A DNA stretch of 64,000 bases, taken from positions 1 to 64,000 of IMG/VR virus record IMGVR_UViG_3300019458_000004. One strand, given 5' to 3'. Of the stretch, positions 142 through 36,122 are shown in pieces. The notes under the pieces are model-generated. The model had not been told where the DNA came from. It did not search any database and was given only the letters and a program-made list of their open reading frames with translations. The first letter of the stretch is position 1; each line of letters starts with the position of its first letter. Origin of the DNA: a virus. Taxonomy: Duplodnaviria; Heunggongvirae; Uroviricota; Caudoviricetes. The position numbers were made by a program, and so were the translations under genes.

Positions 142-405
142 ATGGATTACGAGAAGGAATTGTTGCATGAAATGTCTAAGGCTTTAGAAAGATTAGATAA
201 ATCTGTTGATGGGATTAATATTACTATTGCTAAACAAGAGGTTCATTTAGCTGAGCATATTCGTCGTACTTCTTTACTTGAAGAAGAAATGAAACCAATT
301 CGTGATCATGTCAATCGTGTTAATGCTTTAATTTTACTTCTTGGTGGGATTTTGGCTCTTCTCGGTGCTGTTAAGGCTGTTATTGAGATTGTTCAACTCT
401 TCTAA
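142..405 (+). CDS. hypothetical small protein, coiled-coil N-terminus and C-terminal TM helix
   Basis: 87-aa ORF with a hydrophobic C-terminus (ALILLLGGILALLGAVKAVIEIV). It overlaps the 3' end of the convergent minus ORF. Confidence 0.35.
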   Translation: MDYEKELLHEMSKALERLDKSVDGINITIAKQEVHLAEHIRRTSLLEEEMKPIRDHVNRVNALILLLGGILALLGAVKAVIEIVQLF

Positions 406-735
406 TTCTCTTTCTTCCGTTCGTATCATTAATTCTTCCGGGTTTAATTGTGAAATATCTTTAACCGCGTTTAAATTTTCTATATTACCAATAGCTTTAT
501 TTTTTGTGAGTATACAACGGTTCCGAGCGTTATTTCTATCATAACAAGCTTTTCGTTGTTTCTTTGTTTTATTTAATGGGTTCGAATGTTTAAAGCTTGC
601 GTTGACTTCTTCTTCAACGAACTTGTTCAGCCACGCTTTTACTTTATCGTTTAATTTGTGTAAATAATCCATATCAATCATCTCTTGTCTTGATATCAAA
701 TTATATTTTTTTTCTAAAGCCGGGAATTTACTCAT
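334..735 (-). CDS. hypothetical Lys/Arg-rich basic protein
   Basis: ORF 334..840. Start moved to the internal Met (MSKFPALEKKY) so it does not overlap the upstream homing endonuclease. Confidence 0.3.
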   Translation of the reverse strand: MSKFPALEKKYNLISRQEMIDMDYLHKLNDKVKAWLNKFVEEEVNASFKHSNPLNKTKKQRKACYDRNNARNRCILTKNKAIGNIENLNAVKDISQLNPEELMIRTEERELEELNNLNNSLNSTEKSQNPTKK

Positions 736-754
736 GCTACGTCTACTACGTTTT

Positions 755-1618
755 TTATTCCCAATTAATTTTTTGGTACGTGGTGTTCTTTTTTTCTGCT
801 TTTTTAATTTCTTTTTCTTTCCATTCTTGGAATACTTCATATTTTCTTTTTAGTTTATAATTTAGATTAGGGATGTTATATATTTTATTTAAAAACTGAA
901 ACACAGCTTGTTTTCGAAAAAATATTAAAGTTTTATTTCGATTGTCATTTTTGGCAATATTATTAAAAAGAGCGTTAAATTGATTTCTTAGATTATCAGA
1001 ATAACTAGAAATAATGACTTGACACGTGGGTCGAGTTGTTTTACTTATATGACCATCCCCTTCAAAAAAACCTCTTGCAAACGCCATTTGTTGTTCATAA
1101 GAATCAAACGTTGGAATTTGAACAATTCGGTCTTTTGCACCTTGTTTAATTTTAAGTAATTCACAGATCTTATTAACCAAATGCTTTGAACAAAAATAAA
1201 TTCCAATTAAATTTGTATTCTTCTTTCTTTTTTTAACAGCATCTCCTATTTGTTCAATAAAAAAATCTAGTATGTGTTCATCTCTTTTATTTAACCATAT
1301 TTGTAAGGTATTTCCGGCTAAAGACCCGTCGCTTGCAATCCATCCCAATAAATATGCTTGTTCAACGGTTTTTATGTCGTCAAAATAAGAAGCATTAACT
1401 TTATGTTTATAATTGGGATTATTTACTCCAGATGTTTTAAGTTGCTTAGAACAATTAATACAAATAATACGGTTATTATTTCGGCGTTTGGTAGCATTTA
1501 TTACCGGTTCAAAGGATTCAAAAATACCACGGCATTCATTACTAATTTTAAAATCACATTCAACCTTAAATAGATATTTACCACAAGGGTGTTTTAAAAG
1601 TTTTTGTAAAATACTCAT
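755..1618 (-). CDS. free-standing LAGLIDADG homing endonuclease (two motifs)
   Basis: Two LAGLIDADG motifs, LLGWIASDGSL and ARGFFEGDGHI. N-terminal Cys-rich region. Confidence 0.7.
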   Translation of the reverse strand: MSILQKLLKHPCGKYLFKVECDFKISNECRGIFESFEPVINATKRRNNNRIICINCSKQLKTSGVNNPNYKHKVNASYFDDIKTVEQAYLLGWIASDGSLAGNTLQIWLNKRDEHILDFFIEQIGDAVKKRKKNTNLIGIYFCSKHLVNKICELLKIKQGAKDRIVQIPTFDSYEQQMAFARGFFEGDGHISKTTRPTCQVIISSYSDNLRNQFNALFNNIAKNDNRNKTLIFFRKQAVFQFLNKIYNIPNLNYKLKRKYEVFQEWKEKEIKKAEKKNTTYQKINWE

Positions 1619-7326: not shown

Positions 7327-7584
7327 TTATTTAATTGCATTTTCACCACGTAAACGCCTAACTTCCGCCATTTTAGCTTCATTAGTAGCCAAACATTGAA
7401 AAGCAATAATAACATGTGGGTTGTCCTCGGTATTTTTTAATAATTGTTGTTTGAGAATACTTAAAATACCGTCAATAGCTTTTAGTTTTTCTTCCGAAGT
7501 AGACTTTGGATTAATTTCACTAATTAAAATTTTTAATTGTGTCATTTTAAAATCCCTTTGTACTTCCGAATCCGCCTTCACCAC
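7327..7584 (-). CDS. hypothetical protein
   Basis: 85-aa ORF. Confidence 0.4.
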   Translation of the reverse strand: MVKADSEVQRDFKMTQLKILISEINPKSTSEEKLKAIDGILSILKQQLLKNTEDNPHVIIAFQCLATNEAKMAEVRRLRGENAIK

Positions 7585-8488
7585 GTTCAGTTTCGCTTAA
7601 TTCTGTGACTTCATCAAAAGAAGTAACTTTGTATTCACTAGGTACAATTTGAGCGAATCTATCACCGACTTTTAACCGTAATGTATTACACCCCTCTGTC
7701 TTATAAAAAATAGCTTGTACTTCTCCTCGATATTGATTATCAATAATACCAACAGAATTTGTTAGGTATAATCCTAATTTATAGATAGACGATCTCGGGT
7801 AAATTTGTAAGTAAACTCCCGGGGGGCATTCAAAAGCTAATCCAGAAAAGACCCTTACTGTCTTTTCATCTTCTTCAATAGACGCAATAGTTAAATCATA
7901 ACCAGCGTCCCCTAATTTAGCTTTAATAGGTAATAAAGCAGTTTTTCTGACTTTTTTACATTTAATATCAAGCGGGGCTTGTTTAATTAGTAATATATGA
8001 CTTAAAAAATTCTTAAATTCTTGCTCCGAAGCATTTCCTTTACTTTTATTCAAAGCATTACAACACCAAACAACGTTCTTTTTGGTGTATCCTAGCGCGC
8101 TATTCTTACGATCTAAAGACATAACATCGAGATCTGCTTGCAACTTGGTATTCCATTCCAAAGTTGTTTTAAATTGAAGAGGTATACTAGAGTAATAGCA
8201 GAGCCCATTTTGAAGATTAAATTGATCAAGTAAATCCTGTTCTGTTAAGGTGAATTCGATTTGTCTCTGTTCGGCAGTATGCTTAATAGCCATAAACTTA
8301 TTATGAAAGAAGGTTTGAATAACATCTTTATTATAAGAGTTAGGATTATTTCTTCCTAAATAAGCAGTCTTTAAATATTCCCCACGACATTTTTTCGAGC
8401 AACAAGCAGTGCCTTTAAGTCGTTTCCAAAACGAAGGTTTTCTATAAACAGAACTATCACAATTTATACATTGACGCGATTGAGCCAT
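7547..8488 (-). CDS. dut: HNH(HNH_3-like)-dUTPase fusion protein
   Basis: N-terminal about 170 aa carry Zn-finger/HNH_3-like LDRKNSALGYTKKNVVWCCNALNKSKG. C-terminal half has dUTPase motifs (GDAGYDL, RSS..K, IDNQYRGE, final GGFGSTKGF). Confidence 0.7.
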   Translation of the reverse strand: MAQSRQCINCDSSVYRKPSFWKRLKGTACCSKKCRGEYLKTAYLGRNNPNSYNKDVIQTFFHNKFMAIKHTAEQRQIEFTLTEQDLLDQFNLQNGLCYYSSIPLQFKTTLEWNTKLQADLDVMSLDRKNSALGYTKKNVVWCCNALNKSKGNASEQEFKNFLSHILLIKQAPLDIKCKKVRKTALLPIKAKLGDAGYDLTIASIEEDEKTVRVFSGLAFECPPGVYLQIYPRSSIYKLGLYLTNSVGIIDNQYRGEVQAIFYKTEGCNTLRLKVGDRFAQIVPSEYKVTSFDEVTELSETERGEGGFGSTKGF

Positions 8489-8595: not shown

Positions 8596-8730
8596 TTAGC
8601 CTTGTACGTTTTCATTTTGAGCTTTATTTTTGAAGGCTTCTTTCTTCCCGGCTTTAACTCTTCGTGCTACACGCCTATCATGAGCATTTCCGCTTGGATT
8701 TCCGGTTGGCCGTTTCTTTGATTTACTCAT
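8596..8730 (-). CDS. small basic protein (44 aa), below the ORF-track threshold
   Basis: MSKSKKRPTGNPSGNAHDRRVARRVKAGKKEAFKNKAQNENVQG. Its ATG overlaps the upstream TGA (ATGA coupling). Confidence 0.3.
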   Translation of the reverse strand: MSKSKKRPTGNPSGNAHDRRVARRVKAGKKEAFKNKAQNENVQG

Positions 8731-9083
8731 TCGTTCTCCGGCTTAGGTTTAGGCGGTGGAAGTAAATTATTCAATTCCGGTGCATATTGTTCATAATACA
8801 CCAAAAAAGCAGCATTTACAAGCATATGCCAAGAATGTGGTAATCCAGATTCATTATCAGTCATTTCGCCTCGACAACGTTTAAAAGAATGTCTAAGCAA
8901 AGAATCCATCGGAACAGAGTGTTCGGCACATTTCTTCCAATTATGATCTGGATACTTTCCACCACCAGCAACCGAAGATTTATACAAAACAGCGGCCATT
9001 GCTTCAATTATTTCGTAGGGAACCCACGAAAAAGGAAGTTTACCTTTGCTATCTCGTAATGCTCCGGTAGGCGATTCATTCAT
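8727..9083 (-). CDS. putative dNTP pyrophosphohydrolase-like phage protein (weak)
   Basis: ORF 8727..9182 trimmed to Met34. The motif ..IEAMAAVLYKSSVAGGGKYPDHNWKK..SLLRH..GE..DNESGLPH resembles phage dATP/dGTP diphosphohydrolase N-domain proteins. Confidence 0.3.
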   Translation of the reverse strand: MNESPTGALRDSKGKLPFSWVPYEIIEAMAAVLYKSSVAGGGKYPDHNWKKCAEHSVPMDSLLRHSFKRCRGEMTDNESGLPHSWHMLVNAAFLVYYEQYAPELNNLLPPPKPKPENE

Positions 9084-9084
9084 A

Positions 9085-9282
9085 TTAGGCAGACTGGGCT
9101 TCGGAAACGGATTGCTCATTTGACACCTCTTGCGGTGCAGCAGACGGTTGTTGTGGACGCAGTTGTGGCGCGGCTTCTTCATTCATACGTTCAAGAATGG
9201 CGGCAACTTCATTATATGGACGAGCAGCTAAATAACGCACAACAGCATCAACTAATTCTTTTGAAAACGATAGGGTAGACAT
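9085..9282 (-). CDS. hypothetical protein
   Basis: 65-aa ORF. Confidence 0.35.
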   Translation of the reverse strand: MSTLSFSKELVDAVVRYLAARPYNEVAAILERMNEEAAPQLRPQQPSAAPQEVSNEQSVSEAQSA

Positions 9283-9292
9283 TTTCTCCTTT

Positions 9293-9481
9293 TTATTGAT
9301 AAATAATAATTACAGAAACTAATTTTTCGGATTCACCCATTTCAGCAGCTTTATACTTCATGGGAACTATTGACATTATATCGAAATCACTTAAAGAGTC
9401 AAGCTTTTCTTTTAATTGTTCGGCATTTTCGAAATTAAAGAGTTCAACTCTAGTTCGAACACCACCTTGTAAGTTTAACAT
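9293..9481 (-). CDS. hypothetical protein
   Basis: 62-aa ORF. Confidence 0.35.
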   Translation of the reverse strand: MLNLQGGVRTRVELFNFENAEQLKEKLDSLSDFDIMSIVPMKYKAAEMGESEKLVSVIIIYQ

Positions 9482-10224
9482 TATCTATACTCCGTTTTAA
9501 ACTTTTCAGAGGTTTTACCTCGACAATATGCTCCACAGTTTTTGCAAACATATCTACGGTACTTACTAGTTGAAGTATATCGATATCCTTTAAATTCCAG
9601 CTTTAAATGTCCACATTTTGGACATCCGTTTGGAACTTCACGCAACAAAGCAATATTTGGGTGGTTTTCCGCAAACGGCCTTAATTTTAAATAAACTTTT
9701 TTAAGTAATACAACGTCCTGTTTATTGTAATCAGCCATTTGCTTCCAAGCTTTTTGATCACCGGCCATACAATCTAACCAAAGGTCGAATCCGCCTGTTT
9801 TTTCTTTACGGCCAACTTCTAGAAGATTTCCAAGATCATCTAAGCTATTAGAATTAAATTTGAAATACTTCTTTGCAATCTTTTTCGTATCGATTTTTTG
9901 ATATGTGGAAACCGGTCCCAACCCATGTTCAATAAACTTAGCATTGGATTTTTTATTATCAAATTCGTCGCCATTATGAGCAATAACAACATCGGCTTCA
10001 TCTAATAAACCATGTAAAAATTGTGTTAAAGATTTATCGGTTTTATCCTTAAAATCCATTCGAGTTTTAACATAGACCTTTTTTTCTCCAAGCCAACTAT
10101 AAGCTACAGAGAGAAGCTCCCATTCTTTTTTAAAGGCAATTACGTTTTGTTCCCATTTTCCCCAAGTATAACTCAAGTTGGGGGAAGTTTCTAAGTCAAA
10201 TAACAAAATCTTAGGTTTAATCAT
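9481..10224 (-). CDS. DEDD-family 3'-5' exonuclease (DnaQ-like)
   Basis: Exo motifs LFDLETS, HNGDEFD, YNKQDV. C-terminal Cys4 ribbon. Confidence 0.6.
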   Translation of the reverse strand: MIKPKILLFDLETSPNLSYTWGKWEQNVIAFKKEWELLSVAYSWLGEKKVYVKTRMDFKDKTDKSLTQFLHGLLDEADVVIAHNGDEFDNKKSNAKFIEHGLGPVSTYQKIDTKKIAKKYFKFNSNSLDDLGNLLEVGRKEKTGGFDLWLDCMAGDQKAWKQMADYNKQDVVLLKKVYLKLRPFAENHPNIALLREVPNGCPKCGHLKLEFKGYRYTSTSKYRRYVCKNCGAYCRGKTSEKFKTEYR

Positions 10225-10537
10225 TTATTCCTTCTAATTTCCTAAAAAAATGCCGGAAATACGGAAAAGCGCTTTCAAGATCTAAAATTTGTTGTTCCGT
10301 TAGTCCAACATTATGTTCTTCTGAAACGGCATGAAAAAACTCATGCCAATACGTTTCCATCATTAATTTAGGTTTTAAGTCACTTTTTAAAATAATTTGT
10401 TTAGGATCAAATCGGGTTTCGCCATAAGTATCTTGTCCGTGGAAATCTTTAATAAACAGAATTTCATATTCAGCTTTTGATCCAGCTTTAATTTTTGTTG
10501 GGATATTCTTGGCTAATTTATTCCAATTCATCTTCAT
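10217..10537 (-). CDS. hypothetical HExxH zinc-metallopeptidase-like protein
   Basis: WHEFFHAV motif. Confidence 0.3.
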   Translation of the reverse strand: MKMNWNKLAKNIPTKIKAGSKAEYEILFIKDFHGQDTYGETRFDPKQIILKSDLKPKLMMETYWHEFFHAVSEEHNVGLTEQQILDLESAFPYFRHFFRKLEGIND

Positions 10538-10769
10538 AAGATTCCAACGATTTCTTAAATTTCTTTATATATACATCTATCATTGCTTTATTATCAATAA
10601 TTGATGAGATAACTTCCTTTACTGGTGTATACTTTTTATATGTTGTTAATCCTTGAAGTGTGACGCTAAAAAGCTTCTGTATAGTTGCTAAATCTGTAAT
10701 AACCTTATTTAGCTTCCTTGCTCTTTTGTATTGTTGTAAATTAGTCGTCATATTCGTTTTTAACGGCAA
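10518..10769 (-). CDS. hypothetical protein
   Basis: 83-aa ORF. Confidence 0.35.
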   Translation of the reverse strand: MPLKTNMTTNLQQYKRARKLNKVITDLATIQKLFSVTLQGLTTYKKYTPVKEVISSIIDNKAMIDVYIKKFKKSLESYEDELE

Positions 10770-11724
10770 TTCCTAATTTAATCTTATTTTGAAATAATTG
10801 ATTAAAATAGTCAATTTCTTCTTGAATCGAGTCAATTGATTCTTTAATAGAAATATCTTCTAAATCTGATCGTAAGAAAATTTCAGAAATATGCGCTGGG
10901 GTAAAGCTATTGTATTTCTTTTGAGCGATTTGTTCTAGAATTTCTTCCGTTGCAACATTATCGGTGTCGTAGAACTTTAGTAGTTGTTGGCGTTCTTTTG
11001 GGGTTGGATAATCGAACTTAATTTTTCGATCTACACGCTTTGGCCGGTTAGCAATGTTTTCAAGCAAATTTTCTGGGTAGTTTGTTGTCGGAATAATAAG
11101 TGTTGGAATACGAAATGCTTTTTCTTGATTATCTAATAGACTTAAAAGCGAACTTTCTGACTTAATACGAACCTGATCAACTTCGACTCCACCAATATCT
11201 TCCGCAATTACAATTAAAAATTTAACTCCTTTATAATCAAAAGTCTTAACAAATTCTTTCACTTCGTATGGATCAATTACATCGGTTTTCCAGAAAATAA
11301 TGGCTGTCGATCCTTCTTTAGCATATTTTAAAGAAATAAGCTTTAGTGCTTCGCTTTTTCCAGTTCCGGCAGGACCATATAAAAGATAAACTCGCTTTGG
11401 AACATCGATCTTTCGTTTGGCATAAACATGTAGTCTATTTTTAAACTTATCTATTAATTCTGTAAGCTGCGCGGTTTTGGCGAATGTTTCAAGAATTTGA
11501 TCGTTATTAAATTCTGTTTCTTGGAGAACTAGCCTTCCCCCACCTTTTTTAATTGTCCAAATACCAGGCTTGACTTTATAAGGTTCGGACTTAGTACTTT
11601 CTTCAACGTATTCTAATTGTACAAACTGATCGCCGGATACGCAAGCAAAATCGCTTTCCGGAAGCTTCTCACCAATTTGCATTTCATGAAGGGTCTTTTT
11701 AGATTTTACACGAAAGTAACCCAA
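10741..11724 (-). CDS. AAA+ ATPase
   Basis: Walker A LYGPAGTGKSE, Walker B FLIVIAEDIGG. AGGAG RBS. Confidence 0.6.
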   Translation of the reverse strand: MGYFRVKSKKTLHEMQIGEKLPESDFACVSGDQFVQLEYVEESTKSEPYKVKPGIWTIKKGGGRLVLQETEFNNDQILETFAKTAQLTELIDKFKNRLHVYAKRKIDVPKRVYLLYGPAGTGKSEALKLISLKYAKEGSTAIIFWKTDVIDPYEVKEFVKTFDYKGVKFLIVIAEDIGGVEVDQVRIKSESSLLSLLDNQEKAFRIPTLIIPTTNYPENLLENIANRPKRVDRKIKFDYPTPKERQQLLKFYDTDNVATEEILEQIAQKKYNSFTPAHISEIFLRSDLEDISIKESIDSIQEEIDYFNQLFQNKIKLGIAVKNEYDD

Positions 11725-12200: not shown

Positions 12201-12593
12201 CTAGATATTTTCTTCAATTATTGCATTCTCAGTACTATAAATGATTTTTTTAATACCGGCTTTTTGTAAAGCCAAAAAACAAATTTTGCAAGGTTTAGAC
12301 ATTCCTTTTTGACCATTTGCTTTTTCTCTATAAATATAAGCGGTTCCTTTATAAGTCTTGTTAAAGTCAACACCAATTAATGCGTCTAGTTCAGCATGTA
12401 TAAAATTTCCCCAAGTCGGACACTTTGGGTGAGTTTTTGTCATATTATTATATCCGGTAGATATAACAATTTTACTTTTATTTAAAATTACACAACCGAT
12501 TTTAAATTTAGAAGGGGATTTTTTTGCTATTTGTTTGACTAAACTAACAATTTTAATCGAAACTGAACTAGATTTGTTAAATGTTTTATCCAC
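12201..12593 (-). CDS. dCMP/cytidine deaminase-fold protein
   Basis: Zinc motifs HAELDALIG and PCKICFLAL. Confidence 0.65.
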   Translation of the reverse strand: MDKTFNKSSSVSIKIVSLVKQIAKKSPSKFKIGCVILNKSKIVISTGYNNMTKTHPKCPTWGNFIHAELDALIGVDFNKTYKGTAYIYREKANGQKGMSKPCKICFLALQKAGIKKIIYSTENAIIEENI

Positions 12594-12901
12594 TCTTCGT
12601 ATTGTAGATTATGTTTACCTAAATTACAAGTTTTACAACAAGGAATTGTATTATTTATTGAGTAACCTTGATTATTGTCTTTCCGATCTAACCCATTATA
12701 GTGTAGTATTTTCTTATGTAGGTTACTTGGGGGTTTGTTGCAGTAGGAACAGTGACTTTTAATTAGGGTTTCAAATTCTTCTCTATATTGTTTTTCAATA
12801 TTAGGATTTGAGTGGTCAATAAAATTATTAGTAACTCCTAGCTTCTTAATAAAGTTTAAATCAAAAGCATTCTCAAGAACTTTTAAAAACATGCTATGCA
12901 T
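12539..12901 (-). CDS. HNH endonuclease (HNH_3-like)
   Basis: CSYCNKPP...YNGLDRKDNNQGYSINNTIPCCKTCNLGK. Confidence 0.6.
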   Translation of the reverse strand: MHSMFLKVLENAFDLNFIKKLGVTNNFIDHSNPNIEKQYREEFETLIKSHCSYCNKPPSNLHKKILHYNGLDRKDNNQGYSINNTIPCCKTCNLGKHNLQYEEWIKHLTNLVQFRLKLLV

Positions 12902-12902
12902 T

Positions 12903-13416
12903 TTACTTCCTTTTATCTAAAAGCTTTTTCGGTGGAGAACCTAGAATTATTTCGGTGTTTCCATCATGACCATGAATTGTTCGAATCTGTTCTAAATTAT
13001 CAAAAATAGACATAGTTTCAAAGCCAATGCTTCGCCATTCAAGGATAGCTCGATGTGATTCTAAAATAATACCTCGCGCAACAACTCCTGTTCCACTAAC
13101 CCCAGAGAGATCCTTCTTTCTTAACAAATAAAATTCCTGAAGTTTCATTTTACCTTCCCACAAATAGTACAAACCTCTTCCATTGTAGCAAATCCTTGGT
13201 ATCTCTAGATCCAAAAGTATCTAGTCCAAAGTAATAAGTCTTTTGTGAAATAATAACACTCATAATATCAACATCATCAATACTATTTTCGTCTGTGCTA
13301 GGCACAAAAGTTCCGTGGCAATGAGAACCCCGATAGGCAGTTAAAATTGCGTGTTGAAAAGTATCTGCGTGTTCTTTTTCTATTTGTTCAAATGGTTTCA
13401 TTTTTAAAGACGCCAA
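12903..13416 (-). pseudogene. nucleotidyltransferase (pol-beta superfamily, YGS..G..SDxD type) split by a frameshift into two overlapping ORFs
   Basis: ORF 13150..13416 has YRGSHCHGTFVPSTDENSIDDVDIMSV (GS...D.D NTase signature). ORF 12903..13214 continues in another frame with a 65-nt overlap. Confidence 0.4.
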
Positions 13417-14774
13417 TCAATTTCTTTTACTCCATTTGCTTTTAAAAATTCATTCGCTTTTGAAAAATACTTTCCCCCGAAGAAATGCTTCTCTGGCTGA
13501 CCTAATGGACTAGGGTGACCACCTTCTAATACTAAAACTTTATCATGTATCTTTAATTCCTGCAATTTATCTTTTGCGTATTTCCCCCATGCTAGTAATG
13601 CAATTGGTGTTTTATAATCCAAAACCCGTTGAATAATCTTGGTGGTAATCTGTTCCCAGCCTAATCCTTTGTGCGCGGCAGATTTCCCCTCTTCTGTCGT
13701 AAGTACAGAATTTAATAGAAGAACCCCTTGCTTCGCCCATGGCTCAAGATTCCCGCTTTTATAGCTCCAAGAATAACCTAAATCATTTCCTAATTCATTA
13801 AAAACATTAATTAGTGAGGGTGGAGGTTTTTTTCCGTGTTCTACAGAAAAAGCCAAACCACAAGCATCTTCCGCATTCAGATACGGATCTTGGCCTATAA
13901 TAATTACTTTTGTTTCCCATGGTTTAAAGTAAGTTAAGGCTCTAAACACTTGACTAGGCTTGGGAAGCGTTGTGGGGGCCTTTATCAACGTTTTAAGGGA
14001 TTCGGGTAGCTGGGCTATGTATTTATCTTCCGGACCCTCTATAAGCGATTTTAACTCATTTGGGGAAGGAATTAAGCCCGGGTTATTAGAATATTTGGCT
14101 AATATCTCGCCGTGGCAGGATTTCGGGGCACACCAACAACCTAATTTTTTCTCTTTTAATTCGGGTAATTGTTTTAACAAATCAAGGTTATTAAGTAAAT
14201 ACTTCTCGTATTCCTCAATAGCTTTTTCGCGCGATTCAACAATTTTTAATCCCTTAGAAGATAAATCTTTTTGATGACTAAATGGATTCCCCCAAATGGA
14301 AGGTCTACCTATATAAATGTCATATTTATCTTTTGTATGGTTTTTTACGTAGTTACTAGGATCTATTTCACAAAGCTGTTTAAAATTTTTCTGAAGAGCG
14401 TAGTTCAAGAGCTTTTCTCGAACCGGATAAATTGCCTCGAAAATTAAGGCCGATTTAAAGAGTTTTTCCAGCAACCCTTTTTTATCGTAATCACCATTAA
14501 AATCTCGTTCCAAACCTAAAGAACGATCTGATTTAAAATAAACTTGTACTTTATCGCCTTCTTGTAATCCTTCAATATTTTTAACAGCATCATACACTTT
14601 TTGTTCATTAGTTCGTTCGGGATTTAAGACAGCGGCAGTAATAGTTTTTTTAGAAGTCCAACGAGAAATATCTTTAATATCACATATTTCTTTAATATAT
14701 TTGTTATAAAGATTTAAAATTTGTTCATCCTTATTTAACATAAGTAAACCATAATTTATTCGTGTGCTTTGCAT
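13404..14774 (-). CDS. ung: multidomain protein: N-terminal unknown domain, DUF4326-like domain, family-1 uracil-DNA glycosylase
   Basis: C-terminus has UDG motifs IIGQDPY..GLAFSV and HPSPLG. Middle has YIGRPSIWGNPF...LGCWCAPKSCHGEIL (DUF4326-like). Confidence 0.7.
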   Translation of the reverse strand: MQSTRINYGLLMLNKDEQILNLYNKYIKEICDIKDISRWTSKKTITAAVLNPERTNEQKVYDAVKNIEGLQEGDKVQVYFKSDRSLGLERDFNGDYDKKGLLEKLFKSALIFEAIYPVREKLLNYALQKNFKQLCEIDPSNYVKNHTKDKYDIYIGRPSIWGNPFSHQKDLSSKGLKIVESREKAIEEYEKYLLNNLDLLKQLPELKEKKLGCWCAPKSCHGEILAKYSNNPGLIPSPNELKSLIEGPEDKYIAQLPESLKTLIKAPTTLPKPSQVFRALTYFKPWETKVIIIGQDPYLNAEDACGLAFSVEHGKKPPPSLINVFNELGNDLGYSWSYKSGNLEPWAKQGVLLLNSVLTTEEGKSAAHKGLGWEQITTKIIQRVLDYKTPIALLAWGKYAKDKLQELKIHDKVLVLEGGHPSPLGQPEKHFFGGKYFSKANEFLKANGVKEIDWRL

Positions 14775-15351
14775 GTCCTTTTAACACTTTCCAAATTAAT
14801 TGTTTGTGGATATTAAGGCATTTCGCCGCTTCACTTATTGAAGGATAAATTTGACCGTTGCTGCATCTAATTTGATGTTTTTTTCTAGTTAACCGAATTT
14901 TATGTTTTGTAATCTCGCTTGAAAACTTTCCTTTATTCCAAGGAATTTGTCCCTTATGACTTAAACTTAGATTTTGTTTATGTTCTTTAGTAAAGGGTTG
15001 CTTTTTTCGATTTTTTAATTTGATACTGATTTTTTGTTTTTGTTCCTCGGATTGTTTTCGACCGAGCATAGGCGCGGTTGCATTTTTTGCAATATTATAA
15101 GACGGGTTTAACTCTGTAAGATAAAATTGTTCGAGGATTAAACACTCTTTAATTGAACATTTATGAATAAAAATAAAATCAAAAACAAATTCTCCATATT
15201 TATTCCATGCTCTTTGTAACTTTATTGAATGATGCTTATTTCTATTAAGCAATGCTTTGTGTTTTTTTAAACGTAGTGGGACATTTTGGCTGCTTCCTAT
15301 ATAACACTTTCCATTGGTTCTATTTAAAATTTTATAAATCCCGGAATTCAT
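14731..15351 (-). CDS. GIY-YIG homing endonuclease (Seg-like)
   Basis: GIYKILNRTNGKCYIGSS...R..H. ATGA overlap with the DNA polymerase C-fragment. Confidence 0.8.
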   Translation of the reverse strand: MNSGIYKILNRTNGKCYIGSSQNVPLRLKKHKALLNRNKHHSIKLQRAWNKYGEFVFDFIFIHKCSIKECLILEQFYLTELNPSYNIAKNATAPMLGRKQSEEQKQKISIKLKNRKKQPFTKEHKQNLSLSHKGQIPWNKGKFSSEITKHKIRLTRKKHQIRCSNGQIYPSISEAAKCLNIHKQLIWKVLKGHAKHTNKLWFTYVK

Positions 15352-15656
15352 AATTCAAGTAAAATTTTAATAAATTCATTCATAAATTCTTGTAAAGCTT
15401 TTTCTTTACCTGTTGCTTTTAAAGCACTGCCTTTAATTTTAATCGTTCCATCTTGATGTTTAATTGCATAATTTTTTGCTTTTAAAGTAGCAATAACAGG
15501 AAAACAACCGTTTAGTTCCCAGATAATTGTTTTAGGATAAAGAGAGTTTAAAGAAAGACGAAGGGCTTCAATCTCTTCTTTAGAGAAAGAAGCCCCGGTC
15601 GGTTTCTTAAAAAATATAGAATCAGTATCGCAGGCTATAATTTCAAAGTTATTCAT
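15348..15656 (-). CDS. family-B DNA polymerase, C-terminal fragment (motif C + KKRY-like)
   Basis: IIACDTDSIFF (YGDTDS motif C) and KAKNYA (KKRYA-like). Motif C is absent from the large upstream ORF. Confidence 0.7.
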   Translation of the reverse strand: MNNFEIIACDTDSIFFKKPTGASFSKEEIEALRLSLNSLYPKTIIWELNGCFPVIATLKAKNYAIKHQDGTIKIKGSALKATGKEKALQEFMNEFIKILLEL

Positions 15657-15837
15657 CTTGTTTTATTGGTTCAGCAATAATTTCATAAATTGGTTCGCCT
15701 AACCAATGCCCCGAATAACCACCAAGTTGTAACTTCCATCCGACTTTTGCGAAATCATTTTTAAACTTAACCAATTGTTCTTCTGTTCCCACAATGGAAA
15801 ATGTTTCTAATATTCTTTTGGGTTCTTGATTATCCAT
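15649..15837 (-). CDS. hypothetical protein (between the DNA polymerase fragments)
   Basis: 62-aa ORF. Confidence 0.35.
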   Translation of the reverse strand: MDNQEPKRILETFSIVGTEEQLVKFKNDFAKVGWKLQLGGYSGHWLGEPIYEIIAEPIKQDE

Positions 15838-15839
15838 AA

Positions 15840-16301
15840 TTATCCAAACAAATATAAAAGAGTCGCAGCATGTAAAAACTGGTCAAATCCTATTGTAACA
15901 TAAAACCAATGGTCTTCCCAGTATTCATAATCCCGAACATAATGTTTGTACCAATTGTTCCGCCAAACTTTAAGCCTCTTGGGGGTTTTACCAGTTTTAG
16001 TTTTGGTAATCAAATGTCCTTTAAACACTTCTTGTTCCATTTCTCTAATATCTTTAAGTGTTGAAAAATGAGCCCGTAGTTTATATAAATTCCAAATATT
16101 TCTATCAATTATTCCATGAAGCAAAGTATTCATAGCAGATAATCGCCAGCCAACAAATGGTAGAAAGACTAAAAATTGAATAGCTAAATGTCCAAAAAGC
16201 CAACGAAAATCAGAAGACTTTTTCTTTCCCATTTCGCGGGGTTGAAGAATAAAATCGGCTAGGAAATGTAGAAAGAATAATTTAATCATACTCTTTCCCA
16301 A
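15840..16301 (-). CDS. hypothetical multi-pass membrane protein (between the DNA polymerase fragments)
   Basis: Several hydrophobic helices (LFFLHFLADFIL, LAIQFLVFLPFVGW, FLHAATLLYLFG). Confidence 0.4.
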   Translation of the reverse strand: MGKSMIKLFFLHFLADFILQPREMGKKKSSDFRWLFGHLAIQFLVFLPFVGWRLSAMNTLLHGIIDRNIWNLYKLRAHFSTLKDIREMEQEVFKGHLITKTKTGKTPKRLKVWRNNWYKHYVRDYEYWEDHWFYVTIGFDQFLHAATLLYLFG

Positions 16302-16492
16302 ATCACTTTTCTCACTTTTTTGTATTTAGTATCTATAGTTCCGATGCCTTTGCAAAAAGGACATGAAATCCATCTAGTATCATATCCATTACTTTCATAC
16401 CCGCTAGATATTTCCTTTTGCCCACTACAATAAAAACAAGTTTCAGTCACTATTTTCGTTTGTGACTTCTTCTTTCGGCTTCCATTCTTCAT
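16286..16492 (-). CDS. hypothetical zinc-ribbon protein
   Basis: CFYCSG...CPFCKG. Confidence 0.35.
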   Translation of the reverse strand: MKNGSRKKKSQTKIVTETCFYCSGQKEISSGYESNGYDTRWISCPFCKGIGTIDTKYKKVRKVIWERV

Positions 16493-19076
16493 AAGTCTTC
16501 CCTGTTGCCCATTTAATAGCTGTTCCTAAAACTTCTCTTCCCCGCCTAGTAACTTCCGAAGCTCCGTGCGGATAATTAAAGTTTAACCCAGAACTTCCTA
16601 AAAAGCCATACATACTATTAATACCAACCTTTTGACTATTCTGCAAATCATCATAATACTTATCTTTTGTATCTTTTGCTAGCTTCTTATTTTTTAATCG
16701 CTCATTGGTAAAATATTCCAAAACTTTAAGAACGTGTTGTTGAGGGTCTTTATGTTTAGGATAGATTTTGTATTCCAGCATTACAGAAGGATAAAGAGAA
16801 GCCACGTCAAACGATAATACATTCTTATGAACTCCTGGAATACCATGAGAGATAGCTCCTTCAAATTCTACTGATTCATCTGCCTTTGGAATACTATGTT
16901 TATTTTGAAGATATGATCGAACAAGCAATGCATTCAATTGCGAACCACTAGCCGATTCTGTCATTAATTGAAAAGGCTTAGGAATGCTTTGTGTAAAATA
17001 AAAGACAGCCGGAATCATTAAATCATATAAATTTAAAGCATCGTCGCCGTCGAAGCAATTATGCGAAATTAAACCATTGCTAATATAGCTGTGTGTTCCT
17101 GTTACCGATATATTATGAACTTTTCCGGAGTATTTTGTTGCTTCAATTTTTTTAATTCTAACGTGTTTTTTGAAAACCTCTTTATTGTGACTTCTTAATA
17201 AATCGGTTCTTTGTTTAATCTTTAAATATTGATTGATTTCTTTTGATGCTTCTGTAAAAAAAGTTAGTTCATAAAATTGATGTTTAGAACGAACCGCTTG
17301 TCCATTAATATAATTTACTTTGCGGTGTGGTCTTGTTCGGAAATTTTGTCGCGTTAAATTTAATTCCATTGATGAAGATAATAAATCAATTATGTTTGCT
17401 AAATGAGGACTTGTTGTACATAAACTTAATTGAAAGCTTTCACCTTGATTTTTAGTTTTTCGAAGATGCCCGTCTCCATCTAGTAAACCTGCTAAAAAAT
17501 TAATGGCTAATCTTGGGTTATTATTTAATATATCAAAACATTCTCTTGATAATCTTTTCTCAGGAGATTTAAATTTTCCATTAGTCCAACGTAAAAATAA
17601 ATCAGCTAATTTATGATTTGAAACAACAATATCTACCGCTTTAGTATTCCCTTTTTTTACAATAGAATATTTATAATTAAGTTTGTCCAGGGTTTGTAAA
17701 ATAGTTTGGCATTGATTTTTATGTTGTGTGATTATTAAACTAAAATAATTTTTATTATTTTTTCTGATATATCCATCAGCTTGATATAAACCAAATAACC
17801 ACATTAAATCATCTCGAAATTTTAATGCTTTTTTAGTTTTTGCTTTTTCTCCTCTAACCAATAAATGATTTATTTTTAAATCTTGTGCTTTAATCCATTC
17901 ATATTTTAATGTTTTTTCATTTAAAACATAAAAAGGATGTTCTGGGGTGACGTTTAATATTTTCCGCCCGCCGTCAATATTAAAACTATACAATAATCCA
18001 TCATAATCTCTTTCAAGTTTCTCAAATACTTGTTGTGGTTTCCCATAACAATCAATAACAGTGTCTCCATTTTCAATATCTTCAATAAACTTCGTGCTAC
18101 CATTTTCAAGAGTAATTAAAGAACTTTTTGGTGCAAAACAAGCGTATTGTTTAATCTTTTCGAACTCTTCTGGGATATGGTATTTATGACGAATTTGTTC
18201 TCCATCATAAAATACACGATCTTTAACTTCTAAATTTTCTTGTTTAATAAGTTGCTTTAGTTTGTATGATTCGTATTTTCTTCCCACGTCATATCTTAAG
18301 GCTACAAAGAATCCATCGATCACGTCCCGACCATAAACATTAACTTTCTTGTATGTGTAGAATTGGGAACCGTCTTTACGAAACTTAGATTCATTTTTAT
18401 TAAACCATAAATCCGATCCGTCGCGGCCAAGAGCTAGGGTAGTTTCTTCGCGGCGGGCAATTGTTTCTAAATAAACGAGGTCAAAGCTATTAATATTATA
18501 TCCTAAAAGAATAGAAGGATTCATTTCCCGAACCCATTTCGTCCAAGCTTCAATCATTGGTTTTTGAGCTTCTGAAACATCTAAAGAATAATCGTTATAC
18601 GCAAAAAGTTTTCGGGTTATCTTTCCTTGTTTTCGAAATGTATTAGCGATAATTAAAACGTTGGCTTTAGGATCGTGAGGATTTAAAGAAGTAGTTTCAA
18701 TATCGAAAGAAAGGATAGACGGTTCATAGCTTTTCATGCCTTTGAAGCAGGTTACGCCGCTTTTGATCATAGCAGCTTCTTTGACATTCCAAATTAAATA
18801 AGAATCCTTGCTGGCAAAATATCGCGCGGCATTATACCATTCTTCTTGAGTATTAAAAAGAAGTGCGTGTTTGTAGTGAAGATTTCCGTTTAGCGGGATG
18901 GACTTGTTGCCGTGGGCGTAGGGAGTAAGTATCCAATGTTGATTTTGTTTGAATTCTGAAACAATGGTGCCATCTTCTTTTTCAATAAACAACTCCAAGT
19001 TGGAACCGTTAACCTCAATATTTGTAATTCGCTGCGTTTTATCTCGGCCATAAATTAATTGCTGAATATCAGACAT
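16443..19076 (-). CDS. family-B DNA polymerase, N-terminal fragment (exonuclease + palm motifs A/B) with a LAGLIDADG intein
   Basis: Exo I FDIETT, Exo II YNINSFD, motif A DVASLYPS, motif B KVGINSMYG. Intein from CFAPKS.. to ..GLISHN|C, with LFGLYQADGYI and LAGLLDGDGHL. The ORF ends about 50 aa after motif B, without motif C. Confidence 0.85.
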   Translation of the reverse strand: MSDIQQLIYGRDKTQRITNIEVNGSNLELFIEKEDGTIVSEFKQNQHWILTPYAHGNKSIPLNGNLHYKHALLFNTQEEWYNAARYFASKDSYLIWNVKEAAMIKSGVTCFKGMKSYEPSILSFDIETTSLNPHDPKANVLIIANTFRKQGKITRKLFAYNDYSLDVSEAQKPMIEAWTKWVREMNPSILLGYNINSFDLVYLETIARREETTLALGRDGSDLWFNKNESKFRKDGSQFYTYKKVNVYGRDVIDGFFVALRYDVGRKYESYKLKQLIKQENLEVKDRVFYDGEQIRHKYHIPEEFEKIKQYACFAPKSSLITLENGSTKFIEDIENGDTVIDCYGKPQQVFEKLERDYDGLLYSFNIDGGRKILNVTPEHPFYVLNEKTLKYEWIKAQDLKINHLLVRGEKAKTKKALKFRDDLMWLFGLYQADGYIRKNNKNYFSLIITQHKNQCQTILQTLDKLNYKYSIVKKGNTKAVDIVVSNHKLADLFLRWTNGKFKSPEKRLSRECFDILNNNPRLAINFLAGLLDGDGHLRKTKNQGESFQLSLCTTSPHLANIIDLLSSSMELNLTRQNFRTRPHRKVNYINGQAVRSKHQFYELTFFTEASKEINQYLKIKQRTDLLRSHNKEVFKKHVRIKKIEATKYSGKVHNISVTGTHSYISNGLISHNCFDGDDALNLYDLMIPAVFYFTQSIPKPFQLMTESASGSQLNALLVRSYLQNKHSIPKADESVEFEGAISHGIPGVHKNVLSFDVASLYPSVMLEYKIYPKHKDPQQHVLKVLEYFTNERLKNKKLAKDTKDKYYDDLQNSQKVGINSMYGFLGSSGLNFNYPHGASEVTRRGREVLGTAIKWATGKTYEEWKPKEEVTNENSD

Positions 19077-19562: not shown

Positions 19563-20005
19563 GATTTATAAAACTTTTCCAAATCTTGCATAAAACATTC
19601 TTTTGATTCGGTTGGGTTTTTACCAAGTTCAATCAGTTCCTTTAAACAAGTTATAATCGTGGTTAAATCTTTTTCAAGCTCGTCAACTTTTTTCCAGCGT
19701 CTTTTAAGTTTTAATTTCATCTGACGATAACGTTCTCTAGTAATTGGCTGTAATATCCATTCACTGGGAAATTTAATTTTCTTAATAAGCTTACGACATT
19801 GTTTCGAATGGAAATAAAATACGTTACTTGGTTTCGTTCCCCAATTATCCATTCTAACTAATAATATACCATCTTCACCAATGAACTCAATCATTCCTTT
19901 ATCGGAAGTCACTATATTGGTCATTTGACAAACATCATAAACTCGAATTCTATCTCCTACTTGGAATTTCATATCCACTCGTCCTTGTGCTCTTTTTCGG
20001 CTCAA
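19544..20005 (-). CDS. hypothetical protein
   Basis: 153-aa ORF. Confidence 0.4.
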   Translation of the reverse strand: MSRKRAQGRVDMKFQVGDRIRVYDVCQMTNIVTSDKGMIEFIGEDGILLVRMDNWGTKPSNVFYFHSKQCRKLIKKIKFPSEWILQPITRERYRQMKLKLKRRWKKVDELEKDLTTIITCLKELIELGKNPTESKECFMQDLEKFYKSWKKYL

Positions 20006-20621
20006 TAATTCGACCGCCTTTTTTAATATTATCAGATGCCCATAATGGTTGCAAATTGGAATAATGACAAAGTTTATGCAATTCTTTTTGTGTTTTGGCA
20101 GATGCTAATGGAATTATATGGTCAATATGCCATCCTTTATTATTGTGATTATCCCACGTCATTCCTTTAAGGAATTTAGATTCTAAATAAGTTTTAAAAA
20201 ATTCTACTGAGCATCCTAATAATTTCTCGGTTTTAACCAATTTGGCTAAACCTTTTCGTTTTAGAGCATGATAAATTCGTTTTCTTATAGTTCCTGATAA
20301 TTTAAATAATTGATTAGTTTTTCTTTTATTTAATTCATATTTTCGGATTCTTGGTCTTTGTTCTTTTCTCCATTTCTGGTATTTTTTAAAGTTTATTTTG
20401 TAATATTCCTTATGGTATTTTCGTAGTTTGCTGTGGTTTTTTAACGCCCATTGTTTTTTATACTCACTGGCTTCTTTTTTATGTATTTGATAATAATTTT
20501 TATGATAATTCTTAGTGCATTCTCGACACCAACCGCGATTCTTTTTTGTAAAATAATTGAAATGTTTGTAAATCCTACAAATAGAACAAATTAATTTATA
20601 GCCACTCTTCCGCTTTGGCAT
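19950..20621 (-). CDS. HNH homing endonuclease
   Basis: WHIDHIIPLASA...NLQPLWASDN. Paralog of 3333..3950. Confidence 0.7.
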   Translation of the reverse strand: MPKRKSGYKLICSICRIYKHFNYFTKKNRGWCRECTKNYHKNYYQIHKKEASEYKKQWALKNHSKLRKYHKEYYKINFKKYQKWRKEQRPRIRKYELNKRKTNQLFKLSGTIRKRIYHALKRKGLAKLVKTEKLLGCSVEFFKTYLESKFLKGMTWDNHNNKGWHIDHIIPLASAKTQKELHKLCHYSNLQPLWASDNIKKGGRIIEPKKSTRTSGYEIPSRR

Positions 20622-29672: not shown

Positions 29673-31218
29673 TAAACCTATTAATAACCTCAGTAACCGT
29701 AGAATCAAATCCCACAATTCGAAGAACGTTCTTATCGTTCATTTCAAAGTTTGAATATCCCCCAGCAACCATACCAACCTCAATAACCTTTACATCAAGA
29801 TTAATTTTACGATACAAAGCCAATTCTTGTACTGAGTGTGAATTACCAGCCCAAGTCTCGTTATCCGTTAGAATAACAATCACATCATACTTATTCTTAG
29901 TATGAAGAGCATACTTAATAGCTAGAGAACAGTCAGTTCCACCACCATTTGGCGTTCCACGAAGAATTTCATCAAGAGAATGCCTTCGACCAATTTGAGG
30001 CACCATAACCTTGGTATCAAACCAAATAAGCTCTGCATTAGCTTCAGAACGCATAATAGCCATTGAAAGAGCAGCCGATACATCCTTCGGAGTAAGTCTA
30101 GATTTATTAATCGTAGCCGAACTCATGCTGCCCGAAACGTCCACCGCCAAGAGAATACTCTTTCAAGTCGGCACAAGCACTTCTAAAGCCGCGTAATATG
30201 CGTTATTTAGGGCGTCATTGATGTTTTGATTGGGCGTCCACATCTTATTACCCAAATCGCCATGACCGCTGCTATAAACGCGTAGAGCATTTAATAGGGT
30301 CACAGAATGAACTTTAGATTTCTTAATGTTTTCAGCACTTAGCTTATTAACAATAGCCTTAGTCGTTTCACTGTTTCCAACCGTCATTCCGTTGCTAGCA
30401 AAACGGTTAAGATTACGAAGAAGAGCAAAAACTGGCATATTAACCAACAATGCATCAAGAATAGCCGGGGTATTCAATTGTTCATTAGGAATCATTTTCC
30501 AGGTCAAACGATATTCCTTAATGAATTCGGCAAGATCCTTGCCTTCCATCATTTGAGCTTTTTCAAAGGCAGCTAGAAGGTTATCTTCCGGAGCCGTTCC
30601 TTCTTCTTGAGTTAGATACTGGAAAATGTAATTATGTTCCGCCGAAGAAGCATGAGAAAGACGAAGAACGTCACGATGCTGAAAACCTTCACGATTTCGG
30701 TACTTTACAACTTGATACTCAACGTCCTTTGGCGTTTTAAGAGTATACCATTTAGAAACAGCAGTTCGAAGACCGCGTGACCAGCCACGAAGATTTTGCA
30801 CATTCGCTAGAAACATGAAAAGCTGAGTAGCGGTATTAAGAACACCAGGCATAGGAATTGCCGCATAAACCGCCTTTTTAACTTCCGCAGTTCCATGGGC
30901 AGCCAAAAGAGCCAATACAAATACAGAAGGATCAACCTTTGGAGCCTTCTTATTCTTCAAAACGTCAACAACAGTGCTAAGAACCTTAAACCCATCTTCC
31001 TTAATGTAATTAATTACAGCATTAGCATTTTCAACCGTTAAAGTCTGCTTATCAACATAATACGTTCCTTCTTCGGAACCAATAAGAAGAAATCGTTCAA
31101 GAAGTTCTTGATTGGTCACAGCAAAACTATAACCACCAGCATTATTCTTAACCATGGTTTTACCAGGAATAGGTTGTGTTTGATGCGTCTTTGAAATCAT
31201 TTTTGAGTAATTTCCCAT
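29659..31218 (-). CDS. rsr: Ro60/Rsr orthologue (TROVE domain + C-terminal vWA/MIDAS), interrupted by one in-frame TGA (30163-30165)
   Basis: ORF 30163..31218 is TROVE-like. ORF 29659..30150 has vWA MIDAS LAVDVSGSM..TDN. They are in the same frame and separated only by TGA: ..EVLVPT*KSILLAVDVSGSM. Confidence 0.7.
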
Positions 31219-35767: not shown

Positions 35768-36122
35768 AAAAAGGATCGTGTAAAGGAACCAAAGTTAAAG
35801 GCAGTTGTAAAAGCTTAGTTAATCTTTCAAGAACTTGTTCTGAAGTATGCCCATCCCATTTATAGTTATCATCTCTTGGAATTCTTTGCTCAATTAAGGG
35901 TAAATATTTTTCTTCAAAATGGTAGCTAATTTGTCCGGCAGTTGTTTCAATAAAAAGAACCGGCCATCCAGGATAATGAGGCTTCCAAGCTTTTTGGCCC
36001 GGAAAATTTAAAACAAGATTTAAATACAATAAAATTCTATGTTGATAAAGTTCTTCAAAAGTATGGTATCCATCAGAAACTTTCCGTGTTTCTTCAACGG
36101 ATAATGGAATAATAACACTCAT
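35760..36122 (-). CDS. hypothetical protein
   Basis: 120-aa ORF. Confidence 0.4.
   Translation of the reverse strand: MSVIIPLSVEETRKVSDGYHTFEELYQHRILLYLNLVLNFPGQKAWKPHYPGWPVLFIETTAGQISYHFEEKYLPLIEQRIPRDDNYKWDGHTSEQVLERLTKLLQLPLTLVPLHDPFYA

Follow-up and report, generated by a model that had tools for sequence, protein, structure and literature searches.

Introduction

To our knowledge, replicative DNA polymerases made as separately encoded chains are rare, and we know of no description of a family-B DNA polymerase (PolB) with a three-chain core. Here we report on region 13404-19076 of a 64,000-nucleotide (nt) stretch of viral DNA (Caudoviricetes; IMG/VR record IMGVR_UViG_3300019458_000004, positions 1 to 64,000), which is called the window. 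An initial annotation, made from the DNA letters alone, had read this region as a fragmented PolB gene, which was borne out. The region is probably one operon that encodes the replicative PolB of the phage as three polypeptides, which would form a non-covalent assembly. Coordinates refer to one strand of the window; the three polymerase pieces are numbered in the 5' to 3' order of their genes, with cut 1 between pieces 1 and 2 and cut 2 between pieces 2 and 3.

According to a review, the products of the split polymerase gene of T4-like Aeromonas phages (Petrov, Ratnayaka & Karam 2010), gp43A and gp43B, co-purify and are active (PMC2988022). In phage 25 a free-standing GIY-YIG (seg-like) gene lies between 43A and 43B (summarised in PMC2988022, PMC2677866). 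Phages 44RR and 25 share with the window a PolB in separate adjacent cistrons of one operon and the convergence of several mobile elements on polB. Yet their polymerases are only distantly related to that of the window, and they have two chains and a group I intron, whereas the window has three chains, an intein and a C-terminus fused to a family-1 uracil-DNA glycosylase (UDG; UNG). Translation of the 44RR cistrons showed that 43A (498 amino acids, aa) ends after motif A, while 43B starts before motif B (KILINSLYG). Because 43A of 44RR ends between motifs A and B, the T4-like cut lies in the fingers, unlike either cut of the window, where cut 1 follows motif B and precedes motif C by 10 aa and cut 2 lies within the thumb. 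The same cut site as in 43A/43B was rejected, since motifs A and B are both in piece 1.

The nrdA-mobE arrangement of Aeh1 (PMC3045599) resembles the window in that an endonuclease ORF (open reading frame) precisely parts the halves of an essential gene of DNA metabolism within one operon; yet that gene encodes a ribonucleotide reductase and not a polymerase. In the fractured genes of Dassa et al. (2009) the 3' end of the homing endonuclease gene (HEG) overlaps the downstream half by 6-69 bp (PMC2677866). The window shares such an overlap with the downstream piece (11 or 44 nt), but most fractured genes have split-intein halves that religate the protein, whereas the window is without any. As cited in PMC4104785, PolB of Methanobacteriales has two subunits (Kelman et al. 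1999) and that of Nanoarchaeum equitans is a split-intein enzyme (Choi et al. 2006). The division into a large N-terminal chain and a small C-terminal one is shared with the window; on the other hand, these polymerases are cellular archaeal enzymes in two pieces without UNG, and that of N. equitans is trans-spliced. The C-terminal part of the Methanobacteriales PolB has about 220 aa, like the C-subunits of 220-270 aa in the phage group of the window.

A coupling of UDG to viral polymerases has been described for the poxvirus E9-A20-D4/E4 holoenzyme, where UDG is bound to the polymerase in trans (PMC5682278), and for phage PolA enzymes with an N-terminal UDG domain (bioRxiv 10.1101/2025.03.26.645540; PMC10201439). 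In both, as in the window, the replicative polymerase of a virus has UDG physically attached. Yet in poxviruses and herpesviruses UDG is a separate protein in trans, and in the phage fusions it is N-terminal to a family-A enzyme, while the UNG of the window is C-terminal to a family-B thumb. A literature search outside subscription journals returned no description of the split PolB of this phage group or of any PolB-UNG fusion. What is new here are other, recurrent cut sites, three chains together with an intein, and the conservation of a UNG fused to the C-terminus.

Anatomy of the polymerase operon

The seven ORFs that the initial annotation had placed in the region were all found again at the same coordinates on the minus strand. 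Domains were assigned by a Pfam search. The features are:

16443..19076, minus strand: PolB subunit 1 precursor (piece 1), 877 aa; DNA_pol_B_exo1 (5.9e-15), DNA_pol_B, Intein_splicing, LAGLIDADG_3, Hom_end
17058..18140, minus strand: LAGLIDADG intein, 361 aa, precursor residues 313-673, within Exo III
16286..16492, minus strand: Zn-ribbon ORF, cargo of the first gap, 68 aa; weak CxxC...CxxC
15840..16301, minus strand: DUF3307 membrane-like protein, cargo of the first gap, 153 aa; Pfam assignment
15649..15837, minus strand: ORF of 62 aa, cargo of the first gap; no Pfam family
15348..15656, minus strand: PolB subunit 2 (piece 2), 102 aa; C-terminal palm, CDTDS, KAKNYAI, first thumb helices
14731..15351, minus strand: free-standing GIY-YIG/NUMOD homing-endonuclease gene, 206 aa; fills cut 2 exactly
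13404..14774, minus strand: subunit 3 ORF (piece 3), 456 aa; thumb, DUF4326 and UDG
14355..14741, minus strand: PolB thumb part of subunit 3, residues ~12-140 of the 456-aa ORF, from alignments to relatives
14094..14348, minus strand: DUF4326 domain, aa 143-227 of the 456-aa ORF; Pfam E 9.8e-23
13404..14039, minus strand: family-1 uracil-DNA glycosylase domain at the C-terminus of subunit 3; Pfam UDG at aa 282-445, match to 3ZOQ

Piece 1 contains the N-terminal domain and the 3'-5' exonuclease with Exo I (FDIET), Exo II (NINSFD) and, after conceptual removal of the intein, Exo III (YA/CFD, the slash marking the junction), all in columns that are invariant in the alignment described below (A1). 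Palm motif A (DVASLYPS) and fingers motif B (KVGINSMYG) follow, and the ORF ends 53 aa past motif B; the annotated content of piece 1, with Exo I-III, motifs A and B, a LAGLIDADG intein and a stop about 50 aa after motif B, was thus confirmed. Motif C (DTDS) and a KKRY-like motif had been located about 800 bp downstream. They correspond to CDTDS and to the KxY motif KAKNYAI of piece 2, the ORF of which begins 787 nt from the end of piece 1; the DNA_pol_B match of piece 2 is sub-threshold and covers profile positions 222-313. The ORFs reported to lie in between as a Zn-ribbon, a membrane-protein and a 62-aa ORF are there as a weak Zn-ribbon, a DUF3307 protein and an ORF without family. Likewise, the GIY-YIG endonuclease ORF said to come after the C-fragment has Pfam matches to GIY-YIG, NUMOD3 and NUMOD1 at 14731..15351.

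Both gaps are wholly coding, with overlapping stops and starts. The start of the Zn-ribbon ORF overlaps the tail of subunit 1 by 50 nt, the stop of piece 2 and the ATG of the GIY-YIG gene overlap (ATGA), and the 3' end of the latter overlaps the start of subunit 3 by 44 nt. This overlap is 11 nt if translation starts at Met12 (14741), which may be the true start of piece 3, overlapping the GIY-YIG stop. Promoter-like and terminator-like sites in the region were not in excess over chance. Because all genes abut or overlap and such sites are not above chance, the region appears to be one operon.

The three pieces make up one polymerase

The three pieces were joined into a concatenate of 768 aa, consisting of the 516-aa extein, piece 2 (102 aa) and residues 1-150 of the 456-aa ORF, for which about 2,000 homologues were found. 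The nearest full-length matches were contiguous PolBs of 700-740 aa that covered 95-98% of the concatenate with up to 56% identity, among them P0008 with 725 aa and 56% identity from locus L003 (P denotes protein clusters, L loci). The closest matches (67-89% identity) were proteins of 508-522 aa spanning only the first 66% of the concatenate, i.e. N-parts without intein. In alignment A1 the homology of piece 1 stops at ...WATGKTY, which is followed by an acidic tail of 17 aa. Piece 2 extends from (M)NNFEIIACDTDS to ...FIKILLEL, the C-terminus reading ...EFIKILLEL and stop. Piece 3 picks up at (M)LNKDEQILNLYNKY and reaches ...LLNYALQKNFKQL, the end of the contiguous enzymes. The junctions are clean with no segment absent and none duplicated.

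Residues ~12-140 of the 456-aa ORF gave a gap-free alignment with the thumb of contiguous relatives, and they also align to the C-terminal half of two-piece relatives. The 102-aa piece holds not just motif C but the C-terminal palm and the first thumb helices; as had been remarked, it is too short for a full thumb. The initial annotation had speculated that the N-terminal ~150 aa of the DUF4326-UDG ORF supply the missing thumb; because the pieces join without missing or duplicated segment, this speculation was correct. A phmmer search of these first 150 aa against the PDB returned nothing significant, and the thumb was assigned via metagenomic homologues. The best match of the A1 profile was a Thermococcales PolB (KOD 1WNS, E 5.6e-36). 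On it cut 1 falls at about residue 530 of KOD, ~10 residues ahead of the motif-C aspartates, and cut 2 at about residue 633, which is ~45 residues inside the thumb by what we take to be the domain limits of KOD.

AlphaFold2 (AF2) models were used for coarse fold assignment only. The model of the concatenate was poor with a mean predicted local distance difference test (pLDDT) value of 59, lowest at the two junction tails, and a template-modelling score of ~0.33; in Foldseek it nevertheless aligned full-length to the KOD, 9N and Tgo polymerases. The model of the 456-aa protein (pLDDT 63) exceeded 80 over residues 20-110. The exonuclease motifs, motifs A, B and C with KxY and a complete thumb are all present across the pieces. 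Judged by alignment, the three ORFs jointly make one complete family-B polymerase.

Megablast found no match for the 5.7-kb region among 50,697 phage records, and the closest PolBs of cultured phages in tblastn were those of Salinibacter phages with ~28% identity. Because of this distance there is no annotated reference genome.

The first cut and its cargo

A scan of IMG/VR with an alignment-based query yielded 45 loci on contigs of up to ~105 kb, in which the pieces were traced by tblastn and ORFs; the same scan with a single-sequence query returned no loci. Cut 1 was at the identical point in 20 of the 45 loci and was also found in L001, L005, L052 and L054. It leaves a signature of an N-part ending in ...WA(T/S)GK.., followed by a short tail that is often acidic, and a C-part starting M..(H/Y)NF.(I/L)....DTDS. 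Nine of these 20 loci have a stop/start overlap of 8-20 nt, while gaps of 86-707 nt separate stop and start in the others; across relatives the first gap ranges from -20 nt (overlap) to +2.5 kb. In L027 the C-subunit gene (254..910) lies ~8 kb upstream of the N-subunit gene (9043..10569) on the same strand, so the two halves are uncoupled there.

The gap differs in content as well. L001, the N-part of which is 82% identical to that of the window, has genes for NMNAT-Nudix and NAMPT in it, followed by a single C-part of 270 aa with motif C and thumb. Two small ORFs precede a C-part of 236 aa in L005, which carries the intein, and one of 436 aa in L052, while the polymerase of L003 is uncut. An exhaustive HMMER search of 1.84 billion cluster representatives with the 102-aa piece gave 310 hits; among the best 150 about 100 were stand-alone proteins of 200-300 aa that match from residue 1-20, and ~34 were contiguous PolBs. 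In a rough neighbour-joining tree of N-parts, calculated without support values, split and contiguous states were interspersed, which suggests repeated fission and/or re-fusion of PolB. By this comparative evidence cut 1 is an old, widespread polymorphism of the whole phage group and not peculiar to this genome.

The cargo of the first gap is unrelated from genome to genome. We rejected the three ORFs of the window as conserved accessory subunits, as none of them is homologous to an ORF in the gap of L001, L005, L051 or L052. The homologue of the DUF3307 protein in L005 (47% identical) lies elsewhere, upstream of the primase-helicase, and a homologue of the Zn-ribbon ORF was found in the gap of no related locus. 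From their distribution, the three intervening ORFs are interchangeable cargo. The first gap of L036, L039 and L049 contains GIY-YIG relatives (35-41% identity) of the window endonuclease, and a NUMOD remnant lies ahead of the C-part in L053. The NMNAT-Nudix and NAMPT genes of L001 (10602..13125), between the genes of the N- and C-subunits, are genes of NAD+ salvage, for which reason we regard the polB cut site as an insertion hot-spot for cargo.

The second cut and the GIY-YIG gene

Among the representatives with a match to the 102-aa piece are several of 104-118 aa that share its end point. One of them, P0365 with 105 aa, is identical on five contigs. Three of these were read (L054, L055 and L056 from three JGI samples, one of 79 kb), and all are three-piece: an N-part of 575 aa is followed by ORFs of 89 and 81 aa, the 105-aa piece 2, a 76-aa HNH remnant and a thumb ORF of 158 aa. 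Piece 2 ends there with ...KIVEILIEED and stop, and the thumb ORF begins MVSQKKMDKLLDLYNEYIKE... In L057 a piece 2 of 104 aa (...ACILNHED and stop) ends at the same place, and the ORF overlapping it, which starts MRTNYKVYKITAPSGKVYIGIT, is a different GIY-YIG enzyme. The PolBs of the three cut-2 lineages are ~48% identical, and different endonucleases have split them at one and the same residue. Because one of these endonucleases has already decayed, we argue that the three-chain state is viable.

The window endonuclease gave Pfam matches to GIY-YIG (3.8e-10), NUMOD3, NUMOD1 and I-HmuI_NUMOD-like. By its domains, 14731..15351 is a free-standing GIY-YIG homing endonuclease of the seg/I-TevI-like type. 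The site of its gene is uninterrupted in the relatives P0121-P0129 described below. A homologue search returned no protein above 49% identity and thus no donor allele of the gene.

Some further observations touch cut 2 and its endonucleases. P0405 is another piece-2-like protein of ~106 aa without contig record in the contig index. P0367 (145 aa), also piece-2-like, continues in frame past cut 2 from ...HLLNDD into CYDKMIFECFIDNHGFF..., an unrelated sequence that starts with Cys; the extension could represent either an intein or an endonuclease fused at this hot-spot. HNH-motif ORFs without Pfam hit lie on both sides of the operon, at 19950..20621 (minus strand, HIDHIIPL...N) and 12539..12901 (minus strand, CCKTCN), and the C-terminus of the former is 49% identical to the HNH remnant at cut 2 of L054. 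A free-standing ORF of 287 aa at 755..1618 (minus strand; LAGLIDADG_3, E 7e-9) is one more of the homing endonucleases, which are unusually numerous in this genome.

The thumb-UNG fusion

A search with the 456-aa ORF (alignment A2) identified nine protein clusters, P0121-P0129, of 432-465 aa and 46-70% identity, in which an uncut motif-C palm and thumb are joined to UDG. In L051-L053 these proteins occupy the position of the C-subunit. Compared with this fusion the gene of the window has two additions, the GIY-YIG gene after ...ILLE and DUF4326, which is absent from P0121-P0129 and lies in frame between thumb and UNG in the window. As these clusters show, a subclade has retained the fusion of thumb and UNG.

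The UDG domain matches UDG of B. subtilis (3ZOQ) over its full length with an E value of 3.7e-46, and GQDPY, LLLNSVLT and GHPSPL are all there. The top Foldseek matches were UNGs with 35-43% identity. As read from its motifs, the domain is a full-length family-1 UNG with intact catalytic residues and is predicted to be active. For DUF4326 a rhodanese-phosphatase-type domain acting on phosphates of ADP-ribose derivatives has been proposed (PMC9503650); the domain was modelled below pLDDT 50 by AF2. A further protein, P0130 (329 aa), has a UNG that is 71% identical to that of the window, while its N-terminal ~150 aa are of an FxSVEGFW type with no Pfam hit and no thumb. Because the UNG of P0130 carries a different N-terminal domain, the phage UNG has joined several partners.

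The intein in Exo III

The intein interrupts Exo III at QYA/CFAPK...SHN/CFDGDD. It has Cys1, block B (TPEH), two LAGLIDADG motifs, the terminal HN and a +1 Cys, a position occupied by Q, E, S, I or T in intein-free relatives, and Pfam matches were Intein_splicing (5e-14), LAGLIDADG_3 (4e-10) and Hom_end (9e-6). From the intact blocks we infer that it is an intein capable of protein splicing. The intein of L005 at the same site (9922..11004) is 84.5% identical. In comparison, the exteins of the window and L005 are 64% identical upstream of the intein and 92% downstream, which looks like homing of the intein with one-sided co-conversion between diverged phages. A second LAGLIDADG intein seems to be present in the 533-aa ORF 36119..37720 (minus strand) at KEKYG/CYDDQTEVL ... 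VWCGN/TARVY (LAGLIDADG_3, E 5.8e-6).

Split, joined, degraded or artefactual

Beside a multi-subunit polymerase split by homing-endonuclease invasion, the initial annotation had named an intron-containing gene and a degraded gene as alternatives. The split polymerase is favoured by the recurrence of the cuts and the intact motifs. It is very improbable that the pieces are joined after transcription or translation by a group I intron, split-intein trans-splicing or ribosomal bypassing. Petrov reportedly described in 2010 a self-splicing group I intron in gene 43B of phage 25, beside a free-standing HEG. Split inteins are of appreciable size, IntN needing ~100 aa and IntC ~35 aa, but the extensions at the junctions of the window have only 17, 0 and at most 13 aa and show no HINT blocks. 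Thus the locus does not belong to the fractured genes as Dassa defined them, although HEGs between split-intein halves are known (PMC2677866). The group I intron that had been suggested to be sought in the gap region did not appear either, as an Rfam scan of 12000-21000 on both strands at E<=1 gave two chance-level hits only and no family of group I or group II introns. Furthermore, the 621-nt insert at cut 2 is endonuclease ORF throughout with no non-coding flank, the first gap consists of three ORFs, and all pieces have an ATG and a stop codon of their own. We thus rejected a group I intron with a GIY-YIG ORF, and the gaps of the relatives, from a stop/start overlap to kilobases with the gene order reversed in one genome, speak against any joining. 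An artefact of assembly or sequencing, i.e. a chimeric contig or frameshift errors that mimic fragmentation, is hardly credible. The data are metagenomic, and L040 has an isolated frame change at another position, possibly a sequencing error. Yet whole genes are inserted in the window and not frameshifts, identical proteins came from three sources (JGI, Logan and ENA), and dozens of independent contigs have the same cut positions. L004 is not among the independent evidence: it had been a candidate for a 98%-identical relative, which was rejected, as it is the same contig as the window, which occurs in assemblies of ENA, JGI and Logan, and 100% identical over 20,634 nt.

Degradation of the gene is unlikely since the catalytic motifs are intact, both cuts recur and pieces 2 and 3 are as conserved as in a control. 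Identities between the window and L052 were 72.7% for the N-part, 67.3% for piece 2 and 60.0% for piece 3, while the control pair L001 and L052, both with an uncut C-subunit, had 70.8%, 61.6% and 55.7%. Because the values of the window are not below those of the control, there is no sign of extra decay. Conservation, however, cannot tell a functional gene from one inactivated recently, and a very recent insertion of the GIY-YIG gene, possibly with DUF4326, might have inactivated the C-subunit and left a defective or helper-dependent variant in which decay has not yet begun. We regard this as improbable, yet worth consideration, because the three-piece layout with DUF4326 is in one genome only and the endonuclease is without close relative. 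On the other hand, two further lineages have their cut at this very residue, each with another endonuclease, and one of these enzymes has degenerated to the 76-aa HNH remnant, so that cut 2 has been tolerated over time; piece 2 of the L054 type is identical on five contigs, and those three that were read, from three samples, all had three pieces. In addition, the insertion is clean at the codon level, stop and start being coupled, the catalytic residues are all intact, and the 89-kb contig carries a full set of replication and packaging genes. Several points weigh against three functional chains. The exact layout of three pieces plus DUF4326 is in this genome alone, with no divergent sister in which selection after cut 2 could be seen, and the GIY-YIG gene has a next best homologue of only 49% identity, so that its insertion could be very recent. 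The AF2 models, with their low confidence (pLDDT 59 and 63), do not support an interface structurally, no domains dedicated to interaction can be seen besides the short tails, and upstream of pieces 1 and 2 there is no recognisable Shine-Dalgarno sequence. A second DNA polymerase was not found among window ORFs of at least 280 aa; this search covered the 64-kb window, and ~25 kb of the 89-kb contig lie outside of it.

Proposed mechanism and implications

We favor the view that PolB of this phage works as three separate chains. Subunit 1 would be made with the intein, and splicing would restore Exo III and yield a 516-aa protein with the N-terminal domain, the exonuclease and motifs A and B. 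Subunit 2 (102 aa) would contribute the motif-C aspartates, KxY and the base of the thumb, and subunit 3 the remaining thumb, covalently joined to DUF4326 and a family-1 UNG. Because there are neither split-intein halves nor an intron, the subunits would have to assemble non-covalently to give polymerase activity. Uracil excision would be tethered to the polymerase via subunit 3, where the UNG may serve in repair or in processivity.

As to its origin, cut 1 would be an old recurrent polymorphism of uncultured phages of ~55-105 kb, the gap being a hot-spot for homing endonucleases and accessory genes. Cut 2 would have arisen when a free-standing GIY-YIG gene inserted cleanly into an existing gene for a C-subunit fused to UNG; the inserted gene would itself supply the stop of piece 2 and the translationally coupled start of piece 3.

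We tentatively extend this model to a large group of uncultured phages, in which PolB may be naturally modular, though we hold this with less than even confidence. Two fission points would be hit by different homing endonucleases, and the first gap would take up accessory or anti-defence cargo such as NAD+ salvage genes. The thumb subunit of one subclade would have captured UNG, and in the window also the DUF4326 domain, which putatively processes ADP-ribose phosphates. This would give a covalent PolB-UNG component of the replisome, reminiscent of poxvirus E9-A20-D4, that is active as three chains.

If the enzyme is active, it would offer two natural, evolutionarily tested split points of the family-B fold, of use in the engineering of split polymerases and for the assembly of palm and thumb. 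Both cuts recur with different endonucleases, which makes them a clear natural case of homing endonucleases reshaping an essential gene, and the relatives can be arranged in a series from fresh insertion (the window) via decay of the HEG (L054) to cistrons that are adjacent (L031) or dispersed (L027). The thumb-UNG fusion would bring the coupling of polymerase and UDG to phage family-B polymerases and predicts replication-coupled uracil excision. For annotation pipelines the consequence is that such polymerases will be called truncated or that their C-subunits, having no Pfam hit, will be overlooked.

Neighbouring genes

Downstream of the polymerase genes, the 88-aa ORF at 13150..13416 (minus strand) matches only the N-terminus of RlaP (PF10127, E 0.002), while L001 and L005 have a full RlaP of 257-258 aa at the equivalent place after the C-part of the polymerase. 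The RlaP gene thus appears truncated in the window, beside the DUF4326-UNG end. The window also encodes a TROVE (Ro60-like) domain protein at 30163..31218 (minus strand, E 1e-29), and relatives encode RtcB, RNA ligase and RlaP. Together these genes hint at an RNA-repair or anti-defence module.

The dUTPase ORF at 7547..8488 (minus strand) has 313 aa as compared with 141-148 aa in relatives. Its N-terminal ~170 aa contain Cys clusters and an HNH-like ...NVVWCCNALNKSKG motif and may be an endonuclease fused in frame. Adjoining the dUTPase gene is a dGTP_diPhyd_N gene (PF18909, MazZ-like) at 8727..9119 (minus strand; 18958..19350 in L004), which belongs to a replication module with a dCMP deaminase gene at 12201..12593 of the window. 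ThyX (Thy1) genes were seen only in the relatives L001, L005 and L052.

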